Positions 11,883 through 40,300 of a DNA stretch of 60,165 nucleotides are shown here, in pieces (position 1 is the stretch's first letter; each line of letters starts with the position of its first letter). This stretch comes from a virus (taxonomy: Duplodnaviria; Caudoviricetes): IMG/VR virus record IMGVR_UViG_3300043399_000886, positions 1-60,165 of that record; one strand, given 5' to 3'. The translations under genes and the position numbers were made by a program. Under the pieces are notes generated by a model, which searched no databases, had not been told where the DNA came from, and was given only the letters and a program-made list of their open reading frames with translations.

Positions 11883-11903
11883 GCCTGACCTTTCAGGGGT
11901 TGT

Positions 11904-11938
11904 CACCCTAGTTGGGGTGGTGCGCACCCTAGTTGGGG
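11904..11938. repeat. CACCCTAGTTGGGG direct repeat, 21-bp spacing
   Basis: Copies at 11904-11917 and 11925-11938 in the divergent promoter region. Confidence 0.8.
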
Positions 11939-12051
11939 CGCCGACCGGGTTGCCGGGTTGGCCCAGATTGTTGGTCCGCATCTGTTGTGTGGACAACAAA
12001 AACATGGAGTGTTAACTTAATGTTTCGAGGGGGTGTCACTGGAGTACCAGC

Positions 12052-12483
12052 ATGAAGGTCGGCGAACAGATACGGGCCCGGCGCGAGAAGCAGGGCCTAA
12101 CGATTGCCCAGTTCGCGAAGCGGCTTGACGTCTCCGAGCAGGCTGTACGGTACTGGGAGTCCGGTCGCAGCGCGCCGCGGCGTCAGGCTCTGAGGTCGCT
12201 CGAGGCGGCGCTGAACTTCACGATCGACTGGACCGAAGGGAAGTCGGGCCGACCGATGGGAGCAGCCGGCCTCATCGACCAGGCTGACGTCGAACTGCTC
12301 TTGCTGATCTGTCGCCTCCCGCCGGAGATGAAGCATCTCCTAGCGGAGCTGGCAGGAGAGCTCGTGAAAACGCCAGTCAGGAAGTCGCGGGCCCCATTCG
12401 CAGACGCTGAACGCAACAAGCCCATGGGGGACTTTGCCGCGGCGAGGAAGAAGAATGACGGCCGAAGAAAGGGAATGCGCTAA
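12052..12483 (+). CDS. XRE-family HTH repressor (CI-like, no S24 peptidase domain)
   Basis: IRARREKQGLTIAQFAKRLDVSEQAVRYWESG; GGAG RBS; divergent from the replication operon. Confidence 0.85.
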   Translation: MKVGEQIRARREKQGLTIAQFAKRLDVSEQAVRYWESGRSAPRRQALRSLEAALNFTIDWTEGKSGRPMGAAGLIDQADVELLLLICRLPPEMKHLLAELAGELVKTPVRKSRAPFADAERNKPMGDFAAARKKNDGRRKGMR

Positions 12484-12700
12484 GCTGTCCGTCGTCAGAG
12501 ACTCCAGGCCGCCTGCTGTCGTCGCGCAGCTCGAGAGCGTCCTCGAACTCGCGCGCAAGGGTGAGGTCACAGGCATCGCACTCGTCACGTACTCGCCCAA
12601 GGACGGCGTCGGGTACTACGGGTGCGGAGCCTTCACCGCCAGGCCTGAACTCGCGATCGGAGCAATAACCAAGTTGCTTGTGCGGTTTCTCCGCAAGTGA
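12455..12700 (+). CDS. hypothetical protein co-transcribed with the repressor
   Basis: VVAQLESVLELARKGEVTGIALV; GAGG RBS. Confidence 0.65.
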   Translation: MTAEERECAKLSVVRDSRPPAVVAQLESVLELARKGEVTGIALVTYSPKDGVGYYGCGAFTARPELAIGAITKLLVRFLRK

Positions 12701-12720
12701 CGAAGATCGCCAAGTAGAAT

Positions 12721-13150
12721 CGGCCGCCAAGACGCATGGCACATGCGTGGCCGCAAGGCCAGCACTCCCGGGGCGGGCTGCAGCCTTAATGTGCCGACGC
12801 AGATGACACCTCGGAAAGACGAGGCCCATCACACATGGGGGCCGGCGACGGGTTGGCGCCGTCGCAGGAAGCTCTAGCTCCTCAGTTGAAGGAAACGCTG
12901 CCGTATGCGGGCGGCCCCCATGTGTGATGGCGCGAAGGCCAAGCGCCAACCACGCGACCCGCCACAGCGAAGCGCGGGAGTAGCGACCTGTGGGTGAAAC
13001 CCGATCGAAACGAGTGGGCAACGGCGGTCCTGGGCAGGCAAACGTCGAGACGCCTCGGAGAGACGAGGACCATCACGCATGCAGATCGGGTTGCGGCTAC
13101 GCGGCCCAAAACCTCGCGAGCGGTCTGCAGTCGTGATGGCGAATGCGCGC
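12721..13150 (+). ncRNA. putative structured non-coding RNA / cassette array
   Basis: No credible ORF; TAGAAT at 12715-12720; 19-bp perfect stem 12826-12844/12912-12930; repeated CCTCG-GARAGA-CGAGG-N-CCATCACRCATG; several GNRA-type hairpins. Confidence 0.6.
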
Positions 13151-13238
13151 ACGCCCGAGATCAGCGGCGGCCGCCGTCATCAAGAGAAATCAGCCCCAGC
13201 CTGGAGCTGAAACACTAAAAGTACCCGACTGAAATACA

Positions 13239-13276
13239 CAACTTTTCGTTGGCATCACAACGCTTGCCTATAGAAT
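13239..13276 (+). promoter_or_regulatory. sigma70 promoter with operator overlapping -35
   Basis: CAACTTTTCGTTG (13239-13251); TTGGCA-16 nt-TAGAAT. Confidence 0.75.
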
Positions 13277-13300
13277 TGTGGCTCGCAACAGGAGCTGCAG

Positions 13301-14446
13301 ATGGAACAAGCAAGTGTCGCCAGCGTGCCGTGGGAAGTCACTGAAGACGCCGCGGCGACGACATCAGTCGTCGAGTACAGCCGCGTGGAGGCAGGTCTCG
13401 CTGACCTGCGTGAGCGCTACAGCAACGTCGTGTTCGATCTCACGACAACGGCCGGAGACAAGGCAGCACGCGCTGCGCGCAAGGAGCTGGTGACCACGCG
13501 CACCACGATCGAGTCGATCCGCAAGGAGGCCAAGGCCCCGCTGCTCGCGAAGGCAAAGCTCCTGGACGACGAGGCCAAGCGCATCACCGCCGAGATCGTC
13601 GCGCTCGAGGCGCCGATCGACGAGCAGATCAAGGACGACGAGAAGCGCCGCGAGGAAAAGCGCGCCGCCCGTGAGGCCGCCGAGCGCGCCCGCGTCGATC
13701 GCATCCGCTCGAAGATGTCCGACATCGCATCCGCCACCGCAGGATGTGCTTCTGCATCTGCTGAGGAAATCAGCGCCGTCATCCGCCTGCTCGAGTCGAT
13801 CCAGATCACCGAAGAGGACTACGCCGAGTTCGTCGACGAGGCCGAGGTTGTGCGTCTGCGTGCCGTCTCCCAGGCGTGCGCACTGCGCCACGCGGCCGTC
13901 GAGCGCGAGTCCGAAGCGGCCCGCCTGGCCGCGGAGCGCGCCGAGATCGAGCGCCAGCGCCAGGAGCTCGATCGCGCCAGCGCCGCCGAGGAAGCTCGCA
14001 TCAAGGCCGAACGCGACGAGATCGAGCGCCAGCGCCAGGAGATCGAGCAGGCCAAGCGTGAAGCCGCCGAGCGTGAGCGTGCCGAGCGCGAGCGGCAGGC
14101 CGCCATCAAGCGCGCCGAGGATAAGCGCCTGGAGGACGAGCGCAAGGCCCAGCGTGACGCATTCGAGGCTGACCTCGAGGCAGAGCGCCAGAAGATCCGC
14201 GAGCAGGAAGAGCGCCAAGCCGACGAGCGGGCCGCGCAAGAGGCTGCGCGCCGGGCTCGCGAGAAGCGCCTGTTCGGTGCTGCCGAGCAGATGCTTGAGA
14301 CGCTGGCCGAGATCCGCACCGGCCTGATTCTCGTCATTGGCGACAAGACGCCGGCAGCCCTGCTCGAGGCCGTCGAGTCCACCCTGCCCGCCCTGCGCGA
14401 TGCTGCCCACCGCGCCATCGTCGCCGCCACCGAGGAGCAGCAATGA
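13301..14446 (+). CDS. coiled-coil protein (DUF1351-like) of the recombination module
   Basis: RTTIESIRKEAKAP...IDEQIK, long E/R/A coiled coil; AGGAG RBS; precedes recT. Confidence 0.8.
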   Translation: MEQASVASVPWEVTEDAAATTSVVEYSRVEAGLADLRERYSNVVFDLTTTAGDKAARAARKELVTTRTTIESIRKEAKAPLLAKAKLLDDEAKRITAEIVALEAPIDEQIKDDEKRREEKRAAREAAERARVDRIRSKMSDIASATAGCASASAEEISAVIRLLESIQITEEDYAEFVDEAEVVRLRAVSQACALRHAAVERESEAARLAAERAEIERQRQELDRASAAEEARIKAERDEIERQRQEIEQAKREAAERERAERERQAAIKRAEDKRLEDERKAQRDAFEADLEAERQKIREQEERQADERAAQEAARRAREKRLFGAAEQMLETLAEIRTGLILVIGDKTPAALLEAVESTLPALRDAAHRAIVAATEEQQ

Positions 14447-25123: not shown

Positions 25124-25309
25124 GTGCGACGGGATGCCGACACCGTAGCATTGGCGATGTTCTTCGTCACACTGATCGTCGTCGGCTTCGGACTCGCGGC
25201 GGCCCTCATGCACGACGACGTGGTCAAGCTGCTCCTGGCGATGGCGTGGGCCGGCATGGCCTTGATGGCTGCCGGCTCCACGCTCTACGCGCTACTGTCG
25301 CTGCTGTAG
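25124..25309 (+). CDS. small two-TM membrane protein
   Basis: 61 aa, two hydrophobic helices, lone + strand ORF next to attP. Confidence 0.5.
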   Translation: MRRDADTVALAMFFVTLIVVGFGLAAALMHDDVVKLLLAMAWAGMALMAAGSTLYALLSLL

Positions 25310-28300
25310 CGCCTCCATCTGCCTGTTGAGCCGCGCCATCGTCTCGGTGATGCGGTCCTCGATCGCCTTCACCTGCTCGCGCGGCGCGCCCTGCTTGATC
25401 AGCTCGCGCTTGTCCAAGCGCAGGCGCTGGATCTGGCGCTCCGCCCGGCTGGCCGCGGTGATCAGGTAGGCCTCGCTGCGCTCGCGACGGAGCGCGTTGG
25501 CCTCGGCGTTCTTGCCGTCCTTCTGCAGCCCCTTGATCTCGGTCTCGAGCTCGTTGAGGCGGTCGGTGTTGGCGTAGAAGGCCGTGCCCTCGGAGGCCTG
25601 GCTCTTCGTGTCGCCGACGAAGCGGCCCAGCAGCGGCACCTTGTACGTCGGCAGCGCCTCGCCGCGCGCGGTCGACAGCACCGTCTGCTCGACCTTCGAC
25701 AGCTCCCGACCGACGCCGCCCGTGAGCTGGCCGATCAGGTAGTCGATCTGGTCGGGCGTGGGGCTGAACACGCCGGCCACGTACTTGTTGCCGCCAGACA
25801 GCGTGTTGACGGCCTCCGACACCGTCTTGGCCAGGCTCGTCGCCGTGTCACGGCCGAGCGCCGATCCGGGGATCGCCTTGTTGCTCGACTCGCGAGCGAT
25901 CGGGCGACCGGTCCAGTCGCGGTTCTCGGCGAGCGCCACCAGCGGGTCGAGAGCCGTAGGCGCCAGGGTCTGCATCGACAGGCCTGCGTTGCCGATCGGG
26001 TTGAACGTCTCGGCGAACAGTGAGGCCAGCGACAGGGCTCGCTTGTGCGGGTCCTTGAACCCAGACAGCGCGAACTCGGTAGCCACCCGGCCGATGCCCG
26101 GCAGGACGTGGAAGCCCAGCGGCATCGGGATCGTGACGTACTTGCCGCCGCCGACCGGGATGATCAGGCTGCGCTCGCGCACGAACTCCGGCGGATCGTC
26201 GTCGTTGAAGCCGGCCGCAGCCAGCGCCAGCGCCTGCATCGACCCAAGCATCATGCCGCCGTAGACGATCTTCTTGCCGGCGGCGCTCAGGCGCAGCGTC
26301 TTGGGCTTGCCGGGCTCCATCGTGAAGAGCGTCTGGCCCATCCGCGCCGTGCCCTGGACGCTCGCGTTGAAGAACGCGTACAGCGCGCCGGCCTGCTGGC
26401 TTACCTGGCCCTTGCGGTTGAAGTTCACCGTCAGGTTCTTGGCGACGCTCGCGGCCTGCTCCTTCGAGAGGCCCTTGTCGAGGCCTGCCTTGTAGGCCGC
26501 CAGACGCACGCCGTTCTCGAACGCCAGGTTGTAGTCGCCGATCCAGTCGAAGAGCCAGCGAGCACCCTTCATCGCCACCGACAGCGGGACCTTCAGCGCG
26601 CCGCCGGCGGTGAAGATCTTGCCCAGGCCCGAGTCCATCCACGCGTCAGGGTTCAGGGCCTTCTCGATGGCCTTGGCGCGATCGGAGCTCGTGCGGAAGA
26701 GCTCGCGGTAGCCGGTCTGCCCGCCGACCTCCTGGAACTCATCCCACAGGCGCGCCCACTGCGAGCCCGGGTTCCGACCCTTGCGGGCGGCGCGTGCGTC
26801 AGCGTAGACGCCGCGCAGGGCCGACAGCGTGTCGAGGCCGAACTTGCGCTTGTCGACGTCCTTGAGCGGCGTCGACGACAGGTTCAGCACCGCGCTCTGC
26901 ACGTCGCGCACCAGGTTGACCACGCCGAACACCGGGTTCCACTGCGTGTTCACGCTGGCGAAGTAGCGGCTGATCTTGGCCGAGACACCCAGCAGGCCCT
27001 CGAGGTCGCCGGCGTCCAGGTTCTTCAAAGCTCCAGCCATCCGCAGCGCGCGCGGGTCGTCCTCGTTGAAGACCACTGCGTGCTCGCGCACCACGCCGTT
27101 GGCGTCAGCGATCTTCGCCACGACCGCGTTAGCGCGGCTCTTGTACAGCGGGTCCGGCTGGTCCTTCACCAGGCCCGTGGCCGGGTCGAAGACGCGCTCG
27201 GTGGGCACCTGGTCGACGGTCCAGAAGTCCGGGTTCGGGTTCGACTGGGCCAGGCCGATCAGGGCCTGCGAGACGCGGTTCTTTTCGCCGCGGACGATCG
27301 CCTTCTCGCGCTGGATCGCGACGTTGGCCAGGATGTCGACGACCTTGCGCTTCGAGCCAGTGCGACCCTTCACCTCGCGACCCTTGATGCTGAAGCCTTG
27401 ACCCAGCCCAGGGCTGCCGTCCTTGTCCTCGCGCATCAGCGGGATGTAGTGCTGGTAGGCATTCTTCCAGCCGTCGACCGTGGCCTGCGACTCGAGCTCG
27501 TAGTCGACGTACAGCTGGCGGGTCTGCTCGATGATGCCGTCCACCTTGGCCGCGGCGGCCTCGAGCTTGGTGCGCAGGTCCGCCGGCAGCGTCGCCAGGT
27601 AGTTCTGCGCCTCGCCGGTTTCCATGCCGGAGCCGCCGTCCTGGAAGTCAGGGTTGCCCGGGTTGCGCTTGGCGATCGCCTCGTTCGCTTCCTTGGCGTG
27701 CCGCGCGTGCAGGAACTCCTCGAGGTCGGCCATGCTCAGGCCATCCTTCGAGAGCTGCTCCAGCAGCGGCGTGAGCTCCATGTTCACGAAGTCCTCGGTG
27801 CGCTTCGCAGCGCGGCCGTGGTAGAGCTCCTCCTGGAGGTAGACGTTCAGGTCATCGGCGATGGCGCCGGAGGCTTCACGCAGCGACTCGACGACGCGCT
27901 TGACGTCGACAAGTTTGTCCTGAGCCTTGTAGACGAAGTCGTCCCACTTCGACGCGCTGGGCGAATCCCACACGGCGCCGGTGGCAGTGCGGCCCGTGCT
28001 GCGGCGGATGTCTGGATCAGCAGGATCGAAGGTGCCGCGGTTGCCGATGGCGGACTTGATCTGCTCGGGGTAGAAGGCGATCCACTGATCGTTCTGCTCT
28101 TCTTCGGTGTCGCCGTTTGGGTCTCCGGGAACATAGATACCGTCGTATCCAGATTTCTTCAGGCCATTCACGAAGCCAGTGGTGCCCTCTTCGTCATACT
28201 CGGACCCAAAGACCTGGATCATCATCCGCTCGTCGTTGTCCATGAAGTATGGCTTGCGGATGGCCAAGTACAGCGGCATGACAGAGCCGCCCTCGCCGTA

Positions 28301-31300
28301 GCTGCTGGCCACATCCGGCGAGGCGCTGGTGAATACTCCAAGCTCGTCGGCGCGCCGAACGCGGTCGAAGTCGAACACCGAAAAATCACCGCTTGTCCCG
28401 TGATACACCACCAGCGGCTTGCCGTCGGCATCCACCACCTTCGAGTCCCCGAACCACGCCTTGAACTCAGGCGTGTCGGTGACGCGCTCGCGGCTGAACA
28501 GCGGCAGGCCTTCGGCGACCTTCTCGCGCATGGCGTCGGTGACGTCGAAGCCGGGTTGGGCGCGCAGTGACGTGTCCGGGTTTGACTCGACAATCCGCAG
28601 CTTTTTCTGCGGGTACATGCCTTGAATGCTCGGCAGCATCCGCTCGGCCTCAGCCCTGGTGCGGTACGCCATCAAACCGCTGTCACGCTCATCCATGATC
28701 CACACGTTGGATGGATCGTAGCCAGCGGTGTCAGTCGAGATGCCGACTCGCACCTCGCTCATCTGACCACCACCCACCTTCGGCAGCAGCTTCTTCAGCG
28801 CCGTGGGCACGATGGTGTCGTAGAAGGTCTTCATGCCTTCGCCGCCGACCTTGAGGTCGAGACCGGCGATGCGGTGCATGCCGTATTCGTTTTTCGGCGC
28901 GTCAATCAGACGTTGCGCCAGCTCTTTACCCACAACGTCCGCGACGTCATCGTCGGACGCAACGTCACGCGTGACGGCGTTGGATCCGTCTTTGCGGCCA
29001 ATGATCACTCCGCCGCCTGCGCTCTTGCGGTCGTACAGAACTTCGTCGAGTTGCTGGCTCAGGTCATACCGATCCGCAGACTGCTCTCCGTTGACGAACG
29101 CCACGCGGTCGTAGCCGCCCTCTGCGGCCATGACCATCACGCGCTTGAGGGCAAGGTTGAGCCAGCCTTCGGTCTTGGTGACGAAGGGGGCAGCGGGGAT
29201 CTTGTCGCTGCCGCCCTCCATGTCAAGGTCGCGCCCTGCGCGCATGCGCGCGTACTCATCGCCGCGGCCAAGCTCCTGCGCCATTTGCGGAAACGGCATG
29301 TTGATGCCGCGACGCCCAGCCTCCTCTCGGCTCTCCCCGGCCTGCACGCGCTGCTCGATGTAGTCGTCCAGCAGCTTGTCCGCAAAGGCGTCGTATTCCT
29401 TTCGGGACACGGGCTTGACGTCAGACTCGCTGGCAAACCCCTTCTTCTTCCCCTCCTGCCCCCAGTCGCTCTGCAGCTCCTCGACGAACAGCACGCGCTT
29501 GCCGTCGGCATCGGTGCGGTCGTTGACGCGGATGTGAGCGAGGACGTTGGGCTGGTCCCAGTGGGTGGAACGGTAAGCGCCTTCCTGCGCGCTGTCGATG
29601 CCGCCGGGCATCTCGTAGAATCGAGCTGACGGTGTCACTCCGTCGAACTCTCCTGGGCTGAGCATGCGCTCCGTTTCGATATCTCCATCGTCAAGCGGGT
29701 AGCGAGCGTAGACAAATCGGCTCTCGTCGGCCGACAGCTTGATTGCTTCTTCGCGCCCAATCTCGCGCTCATCCCGCTTAACGGGCAACGTCAGCAGCAC
29801 CTCGCGGTAGTTCTCGCCGCCGGGGAGGGTGTATTGGCTGTACTTGGTGCCGAGAGCACCCGTCTCGCCCTGCTCCGCGTACTCGTTCATCGCCTCCGCG
29901 ATGGAGAACATGCGATTGGCGCGCTCCGTATCGCCCCTCGCCCGGAACTGGCGAGCGATGCGCTCCTCGCGCTCAGCCTCCGCGATCCACCCATCGGTGG
30001 TTGTCGGCTGCCTGCGTGACGAGTTCTCGAAGTGCCGGCTGAGAATCTCTGGCAAGCCGCGCGGCCCGCCCAGCACCACCTCCTCGACCTGCACGCCACC
30101 GCGCTCCAGGTACTCGGCCACGGCCTCCTTGCTCACCTTGCCCTGCTGCAGGTCGAGCCAGTCGTTGATGCCGGACCACTCGATCTCTTCGGCCTTGGCG
30201 ATGCCCTTGTTGATCAGGCCCTTGATCTGGGCCTTCCAGGCGCCAGCCGGAGCCTGCTTGGTCTGCATGGCATCGATGCCGCGGGCCAGAGCGCTGACGT
30301 AGCCAAGCGGCGAGCGCTCGGGGCTGCGCAGGAAGCTCTCGTTGTCGAGGCTGAACGCGCCAGAGTTGCCGATCGCACTCTTGACGTACGTCGGCTTGAA
30401 CGACACGTAGACGTTTGACGGCGTCGCTCCGCGACCGTCCGGGCGCGAGATCGAGTCGCGCAGGTCCTTGTAGATGATGCCGTCGTATCCCTGCTGCTTG
30501 GCCCACTGGTTGATCATGTCGGTGTTCGACATGGGCAGCCCGTAGCCCGGCACGCCGCGCGTGTCGATGCGGTTGAACGAGGCGCCGCGCGCGTTGATCA
30601 CGAGCGGGTTGTCCATGCGCACGTACTGGCGCTGCACGTTGCCGCCAGGCTGCAGGGCCTTGTTGCGGGCCTCCTCGTACACGCCAGCGTATTCGTCGGC
30701 GACGAGCGGCTTGCTGCTCAGGAAGTAGCCCGCGCTGGAGATCGCGGTGTCGACGCGGTCGAAGTCGCGCTTCGTGCCGTGGAAGCCCTCGACGACCACG
30801 GGAGAGCCCGTCTCGAACTTGTAGAGCGAGGCCACTTCCGCCGGCACGACTGTGTGCCCGCCGGTCCACGCCGTGAAGTTCTGGTCGCGCTCGGGGCTGC
30901 GGCGGATGTCGGGGTTCCAGGAGAACCTGCCATTGTTGTCGGTCGCGCTCTTGATCTGCGGCGCGCTCCAGACAACGACCTCGGTCAGCTTGCCGTTGTT
31001 GTACTTCGCGATCCCGTCGTAGCCTTGCTCGATCGCGCGCTTCTTGATCTCGCTGCCGAGGTAGCCGTACTTCTCGTACGCGTTCTCGGCCATGCGCTGA
31101 GCCTTTTCGCGCGCCACGCCCAACTGCACAAGAGCGTCGACGGCAGGGTCGTACGCGTCCTTGCCGTCCTTGCCGATCTCGAGCGGGCGGGTGACACGAG
31201 CGTAGAGCTTGTTGACCTTGCCGCCTTGCGTGGATCCGACGTTGGCGTAGTCCTCTGCGATCTCCAGGTCCGGCGTCATGTAGAAGCCGACGCCCAGCGC

Positions 31301-34300
31301 GCCGCGGCTGCCGACCTTCGGCACAGACTTACCTTCGGACGCGCTTGCGAAGTCGAAGCCTCCGTGGTACAGGACCAGCGGCTTGCCGCCGGGCTCGCCG
31401 TTCTCTGTCATCACCGACTCGCCGAACCAGCGCCGGAACTCCTCGGTGCCGGTGACGTCGCGCGCCGGGCTGGCCTTGGTGTCGAAGCCGTACTTCTTGG
31501 CGTCGAACGGCTGCGCGCGCGGCAGGTCGGCGACGCCGGCCGCCTTGTTGATCGCCGCGACCTCGTCATCAGACAGGACGCGCGTGACCTTCATCGACCC
31601 GCCGATCAGCCAGTTGCCCGTCATGTTCGGGTTGGTCTTGTAGCGGTAGAAGCCGTCGACCGGGACCTGGTCGGTGATGTGCGCCGTAGCCGGATTCGGC
31701 TGGCCCTTCACCGCGCCCGTTGCGGGGTTGGTGATCTTGTACGGGACGGCCCGCTTCTCGGCCTCGGCCTGCCAGTCGCGGTCGGCGGCCATCTCGATCT
31801 CGGCCCACACCTGGTTGGCTGGCCGCACCGAGGGCAGCGTCTTGACCTTGCCCGACTCCTCGTCGAAGCGCGGCGCCGGGTTGCTGCCGATGTGCGTGGC
31901 GATCGGCAGGTCGCCCGCGTGCCAGCCGGGGCGCAGAGCCAGGGGCCCCAGCTTCGACTTGACCTGCGGCTTGCCGGTCTTGGTCGGCTCAGCCTGCTGG
32001 CCGACCTCGGCGTCCAGCCACGCGCCCATCTTGACGGGCTCGTTGGCGCTGACGAACAACGGGAACAGCTGGCCCGGCTTCTTCGCGTCGACGCGGAAGA
32101 GCTTGTAGGCCTTGACGGTCTTCTTCGGCGGCTCGCCGCGGCGCGGGCTGAACTTGATGTCGCCCTCCGGGCCCGCGGTGGTGCCGGCCTCGGAGACCGG
32201 GATGTACTTGCCGCGGAAGCGCTTCTCGCTCCACCCGCCGATCAGGCCTTCGTCCTGCATGCGGTCGAAGAACGCCGCAGCCGGCTCGGTGACCTCGTCG
32301 ACCAGCACGTCGCTGAGGTACTCCTCCTGCAGCCAGCGCAGCATGTCGCGGCCGCGCACAGCCTTGGAGGACGTGATCGCCTGGATGCGGATGTTGCCGT
32401 TCTTGTCGCGGCCGTAGCGGATGTGGGCCTCGTCGTCGAACTCCGCGTACTTCGCGCCCGGGATGTCGCCGTCGTCATCGACGACCGAGCGCGGCTGGAT
32501 GCCAGAGGCGGCGGCTGAGCCAGCATCCGAGCTCCACACGCCGTCCACGTCGGGTCCGAACCCGAGGCCCGTCAGGACCTGCTCGATCCGAGCGCGCGCC
32601 TTCCAGTTGCGCGGTGTCTTCGGCTCGATGAGGAGGCGCACCCCGCGGGCCCTTGCGAGGTCCGCCACGCGGCGCACCGTCGTGCGGAAGAGCTGCGGGT
32701 CGGCCTCGAGGTTCTTGGTGCCCGTGATCGCGATGTCGGCTCCGTCGTCCTCCAGGTTGAAGGAGGCTCCGGCGACAGGCGCCGCATCGTAGTCGGCCTG
32801 GAGCGCGGCGGCGTCATTCACTGCGGCCGGATCGAACCCGGGCAGGTACGAGCCGCGGTTGCCGAAGACGTAGACGTTGTCGGTCTTGTTGAGGTACAGG
32901 TTGCCGCGCTTGAACGTCAGCAGCAGCTGGTCTGCCGCGCCGGCGTAGTCGGCACCCTCGGACTTCTTGTTCGTGCCGCCCAGCGGGCCGAACAGGTCGT
33001 CCTTCTCATAGAACCACAGCGCGGCCTGGATGTCGGCGATGGTGATCGTCTGGCCGGTCTTGCGACGGATGATCTTCTGCGCGGCCTCGGCGGTGTCCTG
33101 CTGGAACGAGCGCTCGAGGTCGGTGCGCGGCGCAGCGACGGCGCCCTCGCGCCCCTCGACCCACACCTTGCCCGCGCGGCGCATGTCGGACTTGAGCTTG
33201 TAGCCGCCCTTGCGGAAGTCCTCTTCGAGCTTGGCGGCGAACTCCAGGGCCTTGTACGGGTTGTCGAGGATCTCCTCGATCTGCTCCCGCGTCATGCCCT
33301 CCAGGTCGGGCCCGAACTCCGGCATGACGGCCGCATCGCCGCGGACGGACTTCGGTTGCACCGGGCCCACGAGGGTCCCGTTGACGTGGTTGTACTCGGC
33401 CACCAGGGCGGAGATGAACTTCTGGTACTGGTCGGCCTCGAGAGCCGGCGCATGCACGAACGAGTAGCCCAGGATGCGGTTCCACGAGCGCGAGAACCAC
33501 AGGTCCGCGGTGAGCGTGCTGTAGTCGCCATGCAGGTTGTTGATGAACGAGCCGATCTTCGGCCCGAACACCATCCACCCGGTGACGATCTGGTCGGACT
33601 TGCCTTCGACCTGCAGCGGCGAGCCGCTGTAGTACAGGGTCTTGTCCTCGCGCAGGCGCTTGTTGATGTCGCCGACTCGGCCCTTCGTGTTGAAGAACCT
33701 CCGCATGGCGTCGTAGCCGTTGCGGTTGATCAGGTCGTGCAGCTTCAGCAGGTTGTTCTCGATGGCGCGCGTCTCGCCGCCAAACGTGCCGCGCAGGATG
33801 CGCACCGCGTTGGGCAGAGTCATCTGGCCGTTGCGCACCAGGTTGTAGACGCGGGCCCCGTACACTGAGTTGCTGAAGACGTCGTTGCCCTGGCTGGTGA
33901 TGCCCCAGATGGCATCGAACAGCATCTCGGCATCGGGGTCCGTCGCGAGCTCGGGGAAGATCGACTGGTAGTCCTTCTTCGCCGCCTTCAGCGCGCGGTC
34001 GTACCAGCCGATCGCGGACTTGCCGCCGCGCGGGCTCTGGAGGTGGAAGATGACCTCCTCGGCGATGGCCTCGGCAATGACCTTCTTGGCGCGCTCAGAG
34101 TAGTCGCCGGGTTCGATCAGGCCAGCCTGGGCGGACCTGTTTTGCAGGGCCCAGAGGATGTCGCTGACGGTGACCTTGCCGTTGGCTCCGGTCGGCGTGA
34201 TGTCGAGCTTCTCTTCGCCCGACGCGATTGAGACGGTGGACTTGCTGCGCCCACTCCTCGGGATCAGCGCGTCGCGGATCAGCTCTCGCTGGGCGTCGGA

Positions 34301-37300
34301 GAGTCCGAACTTGTCGGCGAATCGCTGTACGGCAAATCGATAACCCTCGGCTCCGACTGCCTTTGCGTACGGGACAACAAGAGCATCGACGGCCCTTCGG
34401 AATAGACTGGATGGTCCGGGCTCGCGATCCGAAAGCCACGCTGCCGGGCTGCCGCTTCCATCTCCTGCCTGGACATACGTGTTGGCTTCATTGAGGTCGC
34501 TCCGGACGAAGAACAGGTCGCTGTATTTTAGACCTGCGGATTGCTGGATGTCCCATACCTGGTCGATGAAATCGAGGTACTGCTCCCCCGGCCCGAAGTA
34601 CAGGAACTTGACGGCTCGGCCGTCCTGCGTGGTGCTGTAGTCGAGGCCCGCTGCGCGCGCCGCCTCGATCACCTTGTCGAGCTGCTTCTTCGTCAGCTTG
34701 GTGTCGTTGCCGACGTAGGCCGCCGGCGTGCCGGCCATGTCGTCCTCCGGGCTCGGCTTGTAGACGACCGTCGCGTCCTGGGCGAACGCGAAGCCCAGCA
34801 GCTTCGACAGCTGGGTGGCCTGGTCGTAGGTCATCGAGTCGGCGACCAGAGCGTAGCTCGGCTCGGGGTTGCCCAGCCAAGAGCCCTGGATCGGCACGAC
34901 CCGCAGGCCCTTGATGCCGAGCGCCGAGTCCGCGAGCTCAGCGAACTTCTTCGACGACAGGATCTTCTGGACCGCCGGGCCGATCTTCTCGAGCCGCGGC
35001 CCGAACACGGCCGGCGCCTGGATGGGCGGCGGCGTCAGGTCGTTGCGCGTGAAGTTCCAGCCGAACTCGCCCGGCTTGCCGCCGACCACGACCGACATGC
35101 GGTTCTCGTCGGCTGCGCTGCGATCAACGCTCAGGCGGATGTCGTCGCTCGAGACGCTGAAGGTGCCGCCGTTGAAGTCGGCGCTCTTGACCTGGTTCGG
35201 GTCGAACGCGACGAACACGTTGCCAGGCAGGCCGGAGTACCCCGGGCCGCCGCCGTCGTCGATGACGCTGCGGATGATGGCGCCGTCGTTGTTGTAGCGC
35301 CGAGCCTCACGCACCACGCCGTCGGTGGTCGTGTAGTGGTCGTCGGGCGCCTCCACCGTCCCGCCGATCTCGTCGGCGATTTTTGTGGCCTCGTCGGTCT
35401 CGAAGTGCCCGCGGCCGTCCTCGGCGTAGTAATGCTCGCCGTTCGCATCCAGGACGATGTTCTGGTGCTCGCGGGACCCGCTCCAGTTTGCGCCATCGAA
35501 GTCCTCCTCGGACGGGTTGCGGAGATTGACGAACAGCGCGTAGATGCCGACGTTGCGGCCGCCCTCCTCGTAGTTCTCGAGGTCTTCGGCAGTGAAGTCC
35601 TTGGCCCGGCCGCGGCGCGCGTAGCTGCGCGCCATGCCGTAGTCGGCGCTGGCGAAGATGCCCAGCTCGCCGCGCCGATCACCGGTGGGCCGCTTGAACT
35701 CCGCAAAGCCCCCGGTCTCGGTGCCGTGGTAGACCACCAGCGGCTCGCCATTCTCGTCGACAGCCTTCGAGACCTCGCCGCGCGCGTCGCTCCAGACGCC
35801 GCCCTCCACGCCGGCGAACTTCTCCCAGTCGCCGAACCACTGCTTGAACGAGGGTGTGCGCACCTGCACCCACTGCCGCTCGCTGAGCTTCGTGGGCTGG
35901 CCGTTGGGCGCCTTCATCCACTGGTCGGTGTTGCGGTACTGGGCCTCGACCTGCGCGTACTCGCTGGCCGCGCGCTGCACGTCCTCGCCGCGCACCGGGC
36001 TGAAGCGGATCGATGAGCCGATGCGCTCCATCTCGGCGTTGGCCTGGTCGCGGCTCGTCTCGGGGACGATCAGCGTGCCCGAGCGCAGGCGCGCGCCAGG
36101 GATCGACGTGACGTCGACGCGCTGCATCTCGGCGCTCATCAGGCCGCGCTTCAAGTCCTGGGGTACGGCCTTCGGCGGCACCGGGACGGCCGGCGTCGGG
36201 ACGGTCTCGGCCGGCATGTTGGTCGAGGCCTTGCCGATCACCACGCCGATGCCCTGGCCGGTCGGGTGGTTCTTCACCCAGTAGCCGTCGAAGCCGGCGT
36301 CGAGGATGGCCGACTCGGTGCCGTTGATGTCGGCGCCGTTCCAGAGCTTCAGCGGGTCAGCCTTGGCATCGTAGAGCTTGGGCAGCTTGACCTGGTGCGC
36401 CACGCCACCGACGCCAGCCTCCGGTCGCACGCCCTGACCCTCGTCGATGTAGAAGTAGACGCGGCTCTTAAGGCGGCCGTCGGTCGTCTCGCGCAGGCGC
36501 TCGGCCTCTAGGCCCTTGAGGCCCTGGCCGTAGAAGGCGCCATTCAGCGCGGCGCGCGGCTGGCGGCTGAAGTGGATGCCGAACTCCGGCGACGGCGCCT
36601 CGGCGCGCTCAGTCGACTTCCTGATGTCCGGGTTGGCGGGATCGAACTGACCGTTGTTGCCGATGGCGGACTTGACTTGGGTCGGCGAGAGCACCGCGAT
36701 CTCGCGGTACTTGCCGGCGTCGCGCAGGTTCTCGTTGGTGCGCGCGATGGCGTCGTACCCGGCGCGCTCCATGATCTTGCGGAAGACGTCGGGCGCCTCG
36801 GCGCGCATGGTCGACTTCTTGATCTCGGCCTTGGCGCGCTGGACGTCCGCCGCCAGCTTGGTGCTGGAGGTGTTCGTCTGCTTCATGTAGCGCGCCATGC
36901 CGTCACGCAGCGCGCCGCGGATCGCGTCGGTGTCGCGCACGAAGCGCTCAGCGTTGAACCCGCGCTGACCCTGGAACATCTCGGTCAGGCGATTGAGCAT
37001 CTCCTGCACCGTGGCAACGACCTTGGCGATCACCGACGGCGCCTTCGGTCCGGCGTCCTGCTGGATCCTCGTGAAGACGTCGGACCAGAAGTTGCCGCTG
37101 CGCATCTGGTCGCCGTTGAGGTCGCTCACGAGCTCCTCGAGCTCGCTGTCGTTCAGGTCGATGTCGGGCTGCTCGAGGATCTTGCCGCCCGGCAGCTTCT
37201 GCAGCGCGGCGTTGGCCTCGGATGCCAGGCGGAACGAGGCCACCTGCTTGCCGCTCTCGTCGGCCAGGACGTACTTCCCGAAGTAGTCGTCGCGGAACCC

Positions 37301-40300
37301 CTTGGCGTTGCTCACCCGGGCGCGTACGACATCGGCGACGGCGCGGTAGGCGTGAGGCGCCTCGACCTTCATCAGGTGGACGAGCTCGTGGCCGAACACG
37401 GCCAGCGGCGAGACGGACGAGGACTCGTTCAGGTAGATCGTGTCGGGCAGGCTCGGGCGCACGAAGCCGTCGTCGCTCGTGCCGTTGAAGAACACGACCT
37501 TCTTGTTGAAGAGCCCGGCCACGCCGCGGATGAGCCTGGCCTGCGACTTCGTGATTGCGCGGCGGCCTTCGGTGGCGCCCGCCGGCTGCTCGGGGAACTT
37601 CGACTCGTCGGCGACGAACAGCGGCTTGCCGCCGACCTTGAGAATCTCCACGCCCGGCGCGAGGTCCGGAGCGACGGTGCGAGCGACGTCCTCGACGGCG
37701 GCCTGCGACTTCGTGCGATCGGTCTTCAGCCAGGACTTGAACTCCTCCATCGTCATGGCCTTCATGGCCTTGCGCCGGCGCGGGCCGGAGCCGTCGGAGA
37801 AGTGCTGGTCGTAGATGCGCTCCGCGGCCGCCTGGTCGGCCACGCCCAGCACGACCTTGTGCTCGTCGAACGAGCCGTCGTCCTTGTACTGGTCGAACAC
37901 GAACACCGGGGAACCCGGGCGCGCGTTCTCCGGCAGGTAGACGTCAACCTGGTCGCCGTCGGCGCCCTCGGTGCGGCGCACGAAGCCGTAGTGGGCCTTC
38001 ATGTCGACGGACCACTTCGTGCCGTCCGGCGCGGTGCCGGAGCGGGTGGACCCGACCGGGTTCTCGACGGCGACCTTCAGGCCATCGAACGTGACGTCGC
38101 CCTTCGCGTACTGGCCAGCCTTGGCCTGTCCCTCGGTGGGCTGGGGCGTGTCGTTCAGCGGGCTCGTGGCTGCGGTCTGGGCGCGGGTGTTGATGAAGTC
38201 CGCGACGGCCCGGCGCGCGAACTGCGAGTCGGCCATGCCGTCGAGCTTGAACTCCTGGCGCTTGGTCGGGTTGATGAAGAAGAACCCGTCCTCGCGGCGC
38301 TCGACGCGATCGAAGCCCAGGGACGCGAGCTGGCCGAGCATGGCCATGCGCTTGCGGCGGAAGGCCGGCGCGGTGTCGCCGGGCGCGGCCGGCGGGATGG
38401 CGACCTGCGGCGCGGCGATCTGCTCGAATGGGGCGGGAGTCTCGACGGCGGGCGCCTCGGCTGCCGGGGCTTCTGTTGCTGGCGCAACAGTTTGTTGTCC
38501 TGCGGGCAGCGCAAAGTCGTCGACCGGCGGCAGGGATTCCTCCTGCGCGAGCTGGTCCAGGCGCAGCTGAGCGGCATCCGCGGCGGTGCCAGCCGGCGCC
38601 ACCGAGCGCGCAGGCATCCTGCCAGGCGCTGGATCGCCGGCCTGGCCGTCCTCGGTCTCGAGTCCCTGCAGGCGCGCGGCGGCCGCATCGGAGGCGGCCT
38701 GACCTTCGGGCGTGGTGCCCACGGTGGGTGCCGGCGGGACCGGACGCGTCAGAAGCGCAGCGGAGGGGCCTGCGGCTTGCGCAGGGGCCGCAGGAGCGTC
38801 GATCGGGGCCTGGGTGGGGGCAGAGTACCTGCCGATGATCTCGAACGCCTGGCGGGCGAAATCGCCCCGCGTCGCGGCCGGGATAGCCGGGTCACGAGCC
38901 TGGGCAGCCAGCTCGACCAGCGAGCGGCGATCGGGCTCCGACATCTGCAGGCGCAGGTCGCGATCGTTCAGCGCGTTCTCGATGGCGCCGAGCTCCGGCA
39001 CGACCGGCGTGACCGGCGGCTCGGGAGCGTTCTCCTTGGCCCAGTCGATGGCGAGCTCGATGCGGCCCAGGGCCTGCTCGCGCGTCGCGGCCGCGGTGGA
39101 TCCGCTGCGGACGATGGCGAGGTCGTTCAGGAACTGCTTGGGCTGGTACGGCGACTCGTCGGAGCGCAGGGTGCGCAGCACGCCCAGGTCGCGGATCTGC
39201 TGCTCCAGCGGGGCCAGGCGCTCGGCGATCGGGTCGACCGGAGTCTCGGGCTCAGGCTGGGGCTGGACCGGCGGCATTGCATCGACGCCCGCCACCGCGG
39301 CGCTCGAGAGTGGCGAGTTGCCCTCCGCGGCCTTGTCCTGGACAGGCTTCGGCGCGGCCGGCTTCACCGGCGGGCTCGACAGCGCACCGGCCACACCGCC
39401 CGTGGCCTTGCCGACGGCGGCGCCACCGATGAAGTCTCCGAGCGTGTCGCGCGTGGCGTTCTCGAGCGCGGGCTTGCCCTGGCCGATGTTCTCGCCGATG
39501 TTCTGGCCGACCTTCTCCGACGTCTCCTGGCCGCCTTCCATGATGGCGCCGCCTGCCGCGCCGACCGCGGTGCGCACCGGCAGGGACCCGGAGACGCTGC
39601 CGAGCGCGCGGGAGACGCCCCGCTTGAGGATGATGCCCTCGATGACCTTGGCGTTGAACGCACCGCCCGCGGCGCCGGCGACCGAGGAGATCGCGCCCGC
39701 CCAGCGGGCCGAGCTGTTGATGACGGAGTCGCGCGCAGCCTGCTCGTCGCCGGTGGCCTGGAAGGCCTCAGCGTACGCGGGAACCTCAGCAAGCAGCTGC
39801 TCGTGCGTCATGCCGCTCATCTGCTCGCGCAGGCTCTCGCGCACGTCGCCCGCCGCGGCGCCGCCGGTGACGGCTGCGTTGGTGCTCGCGCCCAGCACGG
39901 ACATCGCACGCTGCGCGCTCTTGAGCTCGGTGGCGAGCTGGGCGACCTTCGCTGCGTCGCCCGCCTCCTTGGCCGCCTTGAGGGCGCCGGAGAGCTTGCT
40001 CACGCGCCCAGCCTGGCCGACCACAGGGATGAGCATGGTCGACAGCGAGCCCAGTCCGTTGACCAGCAACATGCCCCACCCCTGCGCGCTGTCGGGCAGC
40101 TCGACGCTTGAGGTGTCGCCCTCCAAAACCTTGGCGACGTCACCCTTGACGGTGGCGTCCTCGCGGGCCTGCTTGCCGCCCTCGGTCATGCTGTTGCGCA
40201 GCGCGTCGGAGGCGGGCTTCAGGAGGTTCTTGCCCTCGTACTGCTCGGTCCCGGTGGCCGAGTTGGCGACCGCGGCCATGCCTTCGCCGATGAACTGGCC

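Follow-up and report, generated by a model that had tools for sequence, protein, structure and literature searches.

The window analyzed here is the whole 60,165-nt stretch of IMG/VR virus record IMGVR_UViG_3300043399_000886 (positions 1 to 60,165), a 60-kb viral contig with a G+C content of 67% that derives from a temperate phage. Between the gene for an HTH_3 regulator and a set of recombination genes, this contig carries an array of two structured, non-coding RNA units on the + strand. Each unit joins a short hairpin (HP1) to a long closing helix (P1) that surrounds a variable interior, and the same modular architecture recurs, with covarying helices, in phages of Beta- and Gammaproteobacteria. 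Given these features, we tentatively favor, at somewhat less than even confidence, a reading in which the array consists of stem-closed scaffolds that host ribonucleases of the RNase III and RNase P type may cut into stable structured RNAs.

Two units of one architecture in the window

Each unit consists, in order, of a 5' flank, which is GAC(R) here and (U)GAC(R) in the wider family, HP1 (a 5-bp hairpin with the loop GARAGA), one base, and P1 around its interior; in both units P1 opens with CCAUCAC and closes with GUGAUGG. Unit A (12803-12933, +) contains a GACA flank (12805-12808) and the HP1 CCUCG-GAAAGA-CGAGG (12809-12824), both seen in the sequence, the repeats and the predicted fold, and a P1 in which 12826-12844 forms 19 perfect pairs with 12912-12930 (repeat finder, fold and the covariance model R1). 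The fold places a branched interior of 67 nt (12845-12911) within this helix. Unit B (13047-13142, +) contains a GACG flank (13049-13052) and the HP1 CCUCG-GAGAGA-CGAGG (13053-13068), seen in the sequence, repeats, fold and R1, and a P1 (13070-13088 with 13121-13139; repeat finder, fold and R1) that carries a 2x2 internal loop, CA/GU, and encloses an interior hairpin of 32 nt in the fold. The two HP1 stems are identical and their loops differ by one base. The position of unit B's internal loop is unpaired in 20-23 of 30 aligned units.

An earlier reading made from the sequence alone (the sequence-only reading) had described two units of shared architecture, with a perfect 19-bp stem in unit A and a long closing stem in unit B. 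This description held: a repeat finder recovered a 33-nt direct repeat (12805-12837 and 13049-13081, 88% identity) together with two sets of 19-nt inverted arms, 100% complementary in unit A and 84% complementary in unit B. R1, built from 30 related units that include the window's own two, gave + strand scores of 87.7 bits for unit A and 80.9 bits for unit B, values that are partly by construction because both units are in its training set. On the - strand R1 returned only palindromic echoes (35.9 and 31.0 bits), and over the 60 kb it found nothing beyond the two units and these echoes; a second copy of the array was likewise not found elsewhere in the record. The same reading had counted a third, degenerate unit at 12732-12795, which is absent from the R1 matches at E ≤ 10 and forms local hairpins in the minimum-energy fold, so that two of the three claimed units are supported.

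The array is non-coding. It lies in a 600-nt gap (12701-13300) in which a codon-position GC filter leaves no open reading frame (ORF) of coding-like composition, and none of the six ORFs that cross the array matches Pfam (E ≤ 0.1), in line with the earlier judgment that the region holds no credible ORF. The proposal of a structured non-coding RNA array was also borne out by the fold of 12701-13300, which on the + strand is more stable than that of any of 100 dinucleotide shuffles (z = -4.71) and is less marked on the - strand (z = -3.03).

HP1 and P1 covary across related phages

An exact 24-nt pattern drawn from units A and B matched 14 IMG/VR stretches and one Delftia acidovorans genome. A relaxed pattern that left the HP1 stem free yielded 68 matches in 64 stretches, with HP1 forming all five pairs in 44 and one to four pairs in 24. 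In a metagenome collection there were 64 distinct matches, 35 of them with all four free HP1 pairs; among the 33 fully HP1-paired metagenome matches with at least 150 nt downstream, 31 formed at least 13 of 19 P1 pairs, and the 29 matches with fewer HP1 pairs formed 13 at most. HP1 pairing and P1 presence thus coincide, and true members can therefore be separated from chance matches. Through the combined use of patterns and the covariance model, we found the unit architecture in 40 IMG/VR stretches, 35 distinct metagenome sequences and the Delftia acidovorans genome. R1 also matched 2 of 151 Burkholderiales genomes, a count that is no measure of absence because only 20 candidates per genome were scored, and blastn of 12650-13320 against 50,697 phage records gave no match.

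HP1 stems vary among phages with pairing retained (CCUCG/CGAGG, CCCCG/CGGGG, CUUCG/CGAAG, GCUUG/CAAGC, CCCAG/CUGGG and CCACG/CGUGG). In the 30-unit alignment, pairing holds in 89.5% of cells and both sides change in 15 of 24 pairs; HP1 is paired in 100% of cells, with both sides changing at four of its five pairs. None of 500 shuffles reached the covariation score, and sliding the 3' partner by 1-3 columns lowered pairing to 27-45%. Covariation among homologues, which the sequence-only reading had named as a way to check its proposal, is therefore observed. Units recovered independently of the patterns, by running R1 over loci gathered for the M3 motif described below, show a covarying helix base as well (CUAUCAA/UUGAUGG, CCAUCAU/AUGAUGG, CCAUAGC/GCUAUGG, and a matched deletion, CCA-CAC/GUG-UGG), and HP1 is also found on its own among them. 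By a crude count, which may run on by chance, P1 reaches a span of at least 18 positions in 26 of 28 units.

What P1 encloses differs widely, as expected from the earlier proposal of a conserved scaffold with variable cargo. Interiors measure 5 to 152 nt and range from plain hairpins, through folds ending in a canonical T-arm, to a whole M3 module. The T-arm stands directly before the P1 3' strand in five loci (L214, L237, L242, L212 and L232), and the complete M3 module forms the interior in two (L209 and L018). The first interior hairpin of unit A looks common to L224, with a compensated pair (alignment A2, by eye).

One P1 position forms a U-G wobble in 17 of the 30 units where the other strand would have a C-A mismatch. 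These wobbles, the higher + strand R1 scores and the co-oriented flanking genes in relatives assign the array to the + strand. They also bear on whether the repeats might act at the level of DNA, as folded single-strand recombination sites, an origin or hairpin promoters. A conserved 7-bp helix base below a variable, imperfect hairpin is reminiscent of integron attC sites, and CCATCA comes 17 nt after the flank TGACA; however, the helix-base sequence differs from the attC core, the wobbles favor one transcribed strand, the units invariably run in the direction of the genes around them, recombinase or replication genes are not consistent neighbors, and M3 occurs within a known mRNA leader. We consider a DNA-level element highly improbable.

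A third module, M3, follows P1 in many relatives and shares a strand with it

In many relatives P1 is followed by M3, which has four parts: a closing helix; AAU with the hairpin GCGCA-GGCUGA-UGCGC; a variable insert of 28-164 nt; and a hairpin, GCCGG-AGAUCAGCA-CCGGC, that is continuous with the closing helix. The 18-nt 5' core of M3 occurs in at least 121 viral contigs, and among 116 distinct copies, 95 combine the 3' core with a continuous closing helix of 5-12 bp. In the model-based alignment of 91 copies, 90 of them distinct, 96.4% of cells are paired and both sides change in 18 of 23 pairs, including seven of eight in the closing helix, counts that lean towards structure because the alignment was fitted to the model. 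The two M3 loops are complementary over 5 nt, with 99.3% paired. M3 thereby runs from closing helix through short linker, hairpin and variable arm to a 5-bp hairpin, with a loop-loop contact, an order that we liken to that of tRNA, the insert presumably standing in place of the anticodon arm.

The window holds at most a minimal, degenerate M3-like module (13132-13181, +; R2, 14.4 bits, E = 0.1 in a 314-kb search, a weak match). It comprises a closing helix of GAUGGCG (13135-13141) with CGUCAUC (13175-13181), the segment AAUGCGC (13142-13148) and the hairpin CCG-AGAUCAG-CGG (13155-13167). This module overlaps the P1 3' strand of unit B at 13135-13139 and sits exactly where M3 follows P1 in relatives; a weak M3 copy may thus follow unit B. 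After unit A, a small hairpin found by eye (UGGCGC-GAAGGCCAA-GCGCCA, then AC; 12928-12948, +) takes in the final 3 nt of the P1 3' strand and is analogous to the closing helix of D2, as we term the domain after P1 that in its full form is M3.

The closing helix of D2 begins inside the P1 3' strand. A perfect complement of the 7-mer GAUGGNN lies within 400 nt downstream in 13 of 28 units, compared with 1 of 140 control 7-mers, and it varies along with GAUGGNN across six different 7-mer pairs (among them GAUGGUG/CACCAUC, GUUGGUG/CACCAAC, GAUGGCG/CGCCAUC and GAUGGCA/UGCCAUC); AAC follows it in 11 of the 13 cases. Nine of the 30 units have a U-U mismatch at the base of P1 (GUGUUGG), and in the four of these where a complement was found it reads CACCAAC, which lets the downstream helix retain a complete pair where P1 has U-U. 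With GAUGG in both helices, P1 and the domain after it either compete for this strand or pass it from one to the other.

Such strand sharing would suit modules that are domains of one large RNA of about 350-500 nt or more, comparable to GOLLD or ROOL, with GAUGG as a switch or joint. The module order recurs from HP1 to P1, then D2 or M3, then a tail; the complementary M3 loops could pair between molecules, and relatives hold further conserved modules both upstream and downstream of the units. Against a single large RNA, the modules are also found apart: of 80 M3 loci, 14 match R1, in some cases over part of the unit or as an HP1 alone, and the majority of M3 copies thus stand without a neighboring unit. 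Module number and order also vary by locus, and the window's M3 is minimal. We therefore think it improbable that the array is one domain-built RNA of this kind. As a separate observation, three otherwise different loci (L210, L215 and L239) share a module 40-110 nt upstream of HP1, consisting of the UUCG-loop hairpin GCCUG-UUCG-CAGGC followed by UACGCAGA...UCUGCNUACGG.

Comparison with known RNA families

At gathering thresholds Rfam 15 gave no match anywhere in the window, and relaxing the search of 12400-13500 to E ≤ 10 produced three matches of 13-16 bits against thresholds of 37-45, none of them on the units. Over 29 related loci Rfam returned only tRNA, Burkholderiales-2 and sub-threshold matches (anti-hemB, tRNA-Sec and suhB), and the sole match covering a unit was a weak tRNA-Sec hit on one interior (24.5 bits against 47). 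The units thus match no family described in Rfam 15, as the sequence-only reading had supposed. We also found no description of HP1-P1 or M3 in the literature, where the search covered main texts, nor anything on them in RefSeq and GenBank annotations. Self-cleaving ribozymes (hammerhead, twister, hatchet, pistol and HDV-like) were not detected by Rfam in the window. A CRISPR array, which the earlier reading had also rejected, is incompatible with just two copies that lie 244 nt apart, each with its own inverted partner.

That reading had further stated that the array is not tRNA, which stands for the window itself: ARAGORN detected no tRNA or tmRNA gene there, nor in 13 related loci, and RF00005 had no match in 12400-13500 at E ≤ 10. 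It does not extend to the family at large, which sits among tRNA genes and includes tRNA-like interiors as well as M3. True tRNAs lie beside arrays, on the same strand as the units, in L011 (2674-2758, +), L023 (353-424, -), L034 (1007-1078, -) and L040 (1163-1228, -), with Rfam scores of 33-66 bits; the L011 tRNA was found by Rfam and missed by ARAGORN. M3 in relatives stacks an acceptor-type helix on a T-arm-type hairpin and has a loop-loop contact, whereas in the window M3 is minimal and the interiors have no canonical T-arm.

In this stacking of a closing helix on a 5-bp hairpin and in its pairing of two loops, as at a tRNA elbow, M3 resembles tmRNA, the P1/P7 C4 RNA and the phi80 M3 RNA, and the likeness to tRNA-like RNAs extends to the T-arms of some unit interiors and to the adjoining tRNA genes. 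The modules nonetheless have neither a CCA end nor an anticodon arm and match no Rfam tRNA, tmRNA or C4 model. RNase P is described as processing phage RNAs other than tRNA, such as C4 and the phi80 M3 RNA (PMC11143913). A link between our module and the phi80 'M3 RNA' of the 1970s was considered and set aside, as the shared name is unrelated and the phi80 N leader has no R2 match. GOLLD and ROOL are large phage-borne RNAs found beside tRNA genes, modular, with variable inserts and of unknown function. The array shares with them its phage setting, nearby tRNA genes and modular build with variable inserts, but it has no Rfam match to them, its hosts are Proteobacteria and its modules also occur singly. 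HP1-P1 and M3 are filed here with phage leader or tRNA-like structured RNAs.

Some further RNA elements accompany the arrays. Hammerhead-like cores (CUGAUGA, a short GGCC stem and GAAAC) are visible by eye in L034, which is on the contig of L216 and has its core ~90 nt upstream of the unit, and in L088, where the core lies inside the M3 insert; cmscan at E ≤ 1 did not report the L034 core. Sub-threshold matches to anti-hemB (Burkholderia RNA 7; 29-30 bits against a threshold of 49.5) lie downstream of arrays in L018 (2853-2963), L043 (841-912) and L063 (903-965), and in the latter two a CCUCCC-type motif and terminator follow the array by eye. It may be that some arrays carry a separate small RNA at their 3' end. 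L018, a Delftia prophage region, also contains a Burkholderiales-2 RNA (460-526, -; 69.8 bits, above the gathering score) ~2 kb from its unit.

Units stand ahead of phage operons

In relatives the units are co-oriented with their flanking genes and lie just upstream of operons. At 29 distinct loci, Pfam placed the small and large terminase subunits within three ORFs after the unit in nine, recombination genes (RecT, ERF, YqaJ, or DUF2800 with SSB) in five, as in the window, and a DNA polymerase or primase in two; the remaining loci are uninformative. One IMG/VR contig carries two units on opposite strands, separated by ~8.6 kb; L216 precedes terminase and L236 precedes recT/yqaJ. The HP1 stems of this pair differ by one compensated pair.

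This placement is what a cis-acting operon leader would show, in which HP1, as a boxB- or put-like element, loads an antitermination factor or RNA polymerase, and P1 with M3 forms a structured leader that tunes the processing or translation of the first gene, much as lambda nutL and the N leader do. The always co-oriented units just upstream of operons and the opposite-strand pair, each unit ahead of its own operon, argue for it. HP1 itself, with a 5-bp stem and purine-rich loop, resembles lambda boxB in shape. By eye, TAGAAT precedes the GAC flank of HP1 by a few bases in L212 and by ~30 nt in L224, much as HK022 putL is reported to lie just after PL (PMC9378689). The arrays are also followed within 700 nt on the same strand by terminator-like sites in 11 of 26 loci, an excess that is weak against controls of 8 of 26 on the opposite strand downstream and 5 of 26 upstream.

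M3 supplies further evidence for this leader role. By blastn it is present in 13 GenBank phage records and 155 of 5426 complete Escherichia coli genomes; its carriers include IME10, two Stx2c-converting phages, Erwinia phage vB_EhrS_59, Klebsiella phage KO-TP1 and P22-like phages as well. No listed row annotates an RNA feature under the M3 match; most rows give no feature at all, and a few give a protein-coding gene alone. In one E. coli prophage, in IME10 and in the Erwinia phage, the PL operon carries M3 downstream of the repressor gene, at the place of the N leader. The E. coli prophage has M3 after a boxA-like GCTCTTTAAC and a hairpin (by eye) and before the first small ORF, and the Erwinia phage has it upstream of an annotated N gene. 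Lambda and phi80 match neither R1 nor R2; at the same N-leader place they have a similar long closing stem with a different interior. The L115 copy of M3 is closed by a stem very like that of lambda (by eye). The lambda N leader is described as highly structured, with RNase III modulating the repression of N translation (PMC5725501). As an observation apart, lambdoid N-leader hairpins (L246 lambda, L252 phi80, L115 and L205) have similar closing stems with swapped interiors, M3 in some and unrelated sequence in lambda and phi80, a mosaicism inside one RNA helix.

Closer comparison with the known leader systems also brought out differences. Like a unit, lambda nutL with the N leader opens an early operon with a small purine-loop hairpin and then a long helix around a variable, structured interior, and M3 holds that position in enterobacterial lambdoid phages. 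The HP1 loop has 6 nt, however, compared with 5 nt in boxB, and HP1 stands one base before P1; the units are tandem and also precede late and replication operons. A nut site of the lambda type is not supported: the best 9-mer match to boxA in the 60 nt upstream of HP1 was distributed as in the control across 33 units, and a small Arg-rich ORF resembling N is not consistently adjacent. HK022 put is described as ~70 nt with two defined stem-loops and a triplex, binding the zinc-binding domain of the RNA polymerase beta' subunit (PMC9378689). The units resemble putL and putR in being RNA-only, in having two helices, in occurring in more than one operon per phage and in sometimes lying directly after a promoter; they are set apart from put, as that source describes it, by interiors of 5 to ~150 nt in the second helix and by tandem copies (PMC9378689).

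Beyond the missing boxA enrichment, the inconsistent N-like ORF and the weak terminator excess, a leader role is disfavored by the proteins nearby: none is common to the window and the first nine loci, and no ORF cluster within ~5 kb of the units occurs in more than 7 of 31 loci. In addition, the window has a promoter-like site downstream of its array and ahead of the next gene, and the syntenic L232/L056 show one there too by eye; a polymerase starting at such a site bypasses the array. Tandem copies, nested modules, tRNA-like interiors and ribozyme-like inserts would moreover be superfluous for antitermination. We therefore judge a cis-acting leader unlikely, while granting it a real chance of being right.

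Signals around the array

The intervening promoter-like site of the window, TTGGCA-16-TAGAAT (13249-13276, +; 10 of 12 positions match), is the sole sigma-70-like site in 11900-13500, where shuffles average 0.1, and its location between the array and the gene for a 381-aa protein frees that gene from any need for the array's transcript. Upstream of the array the sequence-only reading had pointed to a -10 element; the hexamer TAGAAT is present at 12715-12720 (+), but it is weak and the promoter scan makes no call there. The block that contains it (~12698-12729) resembles, by eye, the leader of the L209/L244/L018 group. L014 has a TAGAAT ~100 nt before HP1 and, after M3, a strong intrinsic terminator. 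The earlier suggestion that the array is expressed together with the repressor was a guess from position, and relatives place the units ahead of terminase, recombination or replication genes.

The array of the window closes with a 9-bp hairpin (13190-13210) that is terminator-like on the - strand only. Other small hairpins flank the units: two leader hairpins, ACGCAUG-GCA-CAUGCGU and UGGCC-GCAA-GGCCA (12732-12761, +), in the minimum-energy fold, and a spacer (12949-13048, +) that contains further hairpins in sequence and fold. The previously noted TGGCC-GCAA-GGCCA (12748-12761) and GGGT-GAAA-CCC (12993-13003; GGGU-GAAA-CCC as RNA) are indeed present, while the CGTC-GAGA-CG hairpin listed with them is not credible and overlaps the conserved GAC flank of unit B. 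At the end of the L230 (L052) array we also observed a second HP1, with the stem of the first, that runs directly into AUUUUUAUU and the ribosome-binding site of the gene behind it; this second HP1 with AUUUUUAUU resembles a short terminator.

Neighboring genes

The gene order on the + strand is the HTH_3 regulator (12052-12483), an 88-aa ORF (12434-12700) directly 5' of the array that has no family match, the gap, the gene for the 381-aa protein of unknown function (13301-14446, with an ATG at 13301), RecT and a YqaJ exonuclease. If a TTG start is used, the N-terminus of the 88-aa ORF is Arg-rich (MPRRGRRM), and this motif is gone with the next ATG. PHROG matches in the window include an integrase, a replication initiator with a DnaC-like loader, RecT, the YqaJ exonuclease, SSB, and lysis and tail genes. 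A single ORF of 5212 aa with coding-like codon composition occupies 25292-40930 (-), beside tail and internal-virion genes.

A processing scaffold as the favored reading

We return to the reading that we tentatively favor, in which the units are scaffolds for RNAs released by host ribonucleases. It draws on the long closing helices, the interchangeable and nested interiors, the neighborhood of RNA genes, the bounds that a promoter-like hexamer and a terminator can set, and the promoter before the next gene. RNase III acts on double-stranded helices of about two turns, and the 19 perfect pairs of unit A and the span of at least 18 positions in 26 of 28 units are of this length. For transcription, cleavage, a shared factor and biological role we infer the following scheme. 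The array would be transcribed rightward, behind the HTH-regulator genes or from its own weak promoter, and would fold module by module, with the long closing helices as processing and stabilizing scaffolds. RNase III would cut at P1 and RNase P or E at the 7+5-bp minihelix of M3-type domains, which would release stem-closed RNAs of ~105 nt (A) and ~70 nt (B). HP1 and the conserved helix base may provide a common handle for one shared factor. The products would presumably act through their folds, tRNA-like or protein-binding, and not as antisense RNAs; antisense complementarity to the rest of the phage showed no excess (12 perfect 12-mers, compared with 11.2 in shuffles). The sequence-only reading had likewise proposed release by RNase III as several small RNAs, with an antisense, decoy or anti-defence role that is conjectural.

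Several points weigh against this scheme. Cleavage sites are not readable from the sequence. Among sequencing runs, two DNA runs from one freshwater sample, possibly the source, are listed for it and no RNA run, a listing that bears on expression in neither direction. The promoter scan called no promoter upstream of the window array and the terminator scan found no + strand terminator after it, and the window interiors are not recognizably tRNA-like to Rfam or ARAGORN. The structural counts also carry some bias, as the invariance of the GAC, GARAGA and CCAUCAC columns is partly forced by the search patterns and the model-fitted M3 alignment (A5) biases its pair counts towards structure. Lastly, M3 lies inside an enterobacterial mRNA leader and the units stand directly ahead of operons, a setting that a role in cis fits equally well.

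Implications for phage biology

A broader view, which we offer as speculation and hold rather unlikely to be right, is that these modules form a distinct class and that phages of Proteobacteria share a general scaffold-and-cargo system in which HP1-P1 and M3 present arbitrary RNAs, GAUGG acts as a toggle, and the lambda N leader is a degenerate instance. Universal closing modules would then mature, stabilize and present tRNA mimics, hairpins and even ribozymes, and a three-strand toggle (CCAUC ... GAUGG ... CCAUC) would pass a strand from one module to the next.

HP1-P1 and M3 are widespread, strongly covarying and unannotated modules, absent from Rfam 15, that occupy control points of phage operons (the early-left leader and the position ahead of terminase) and sit among phage tRNA genes. 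If they are processing scaffolds, they would show how phages package and stabilize small structured RNAs and would offer a natural design for an RNA expression scaffold; if they act in cis, they would represent a new level of control by RNA over early and late genes, on a par with nut and put. Under either reading, the presence of M3 in E. coli prophages makes the question directly testable in a standard laboratory host.

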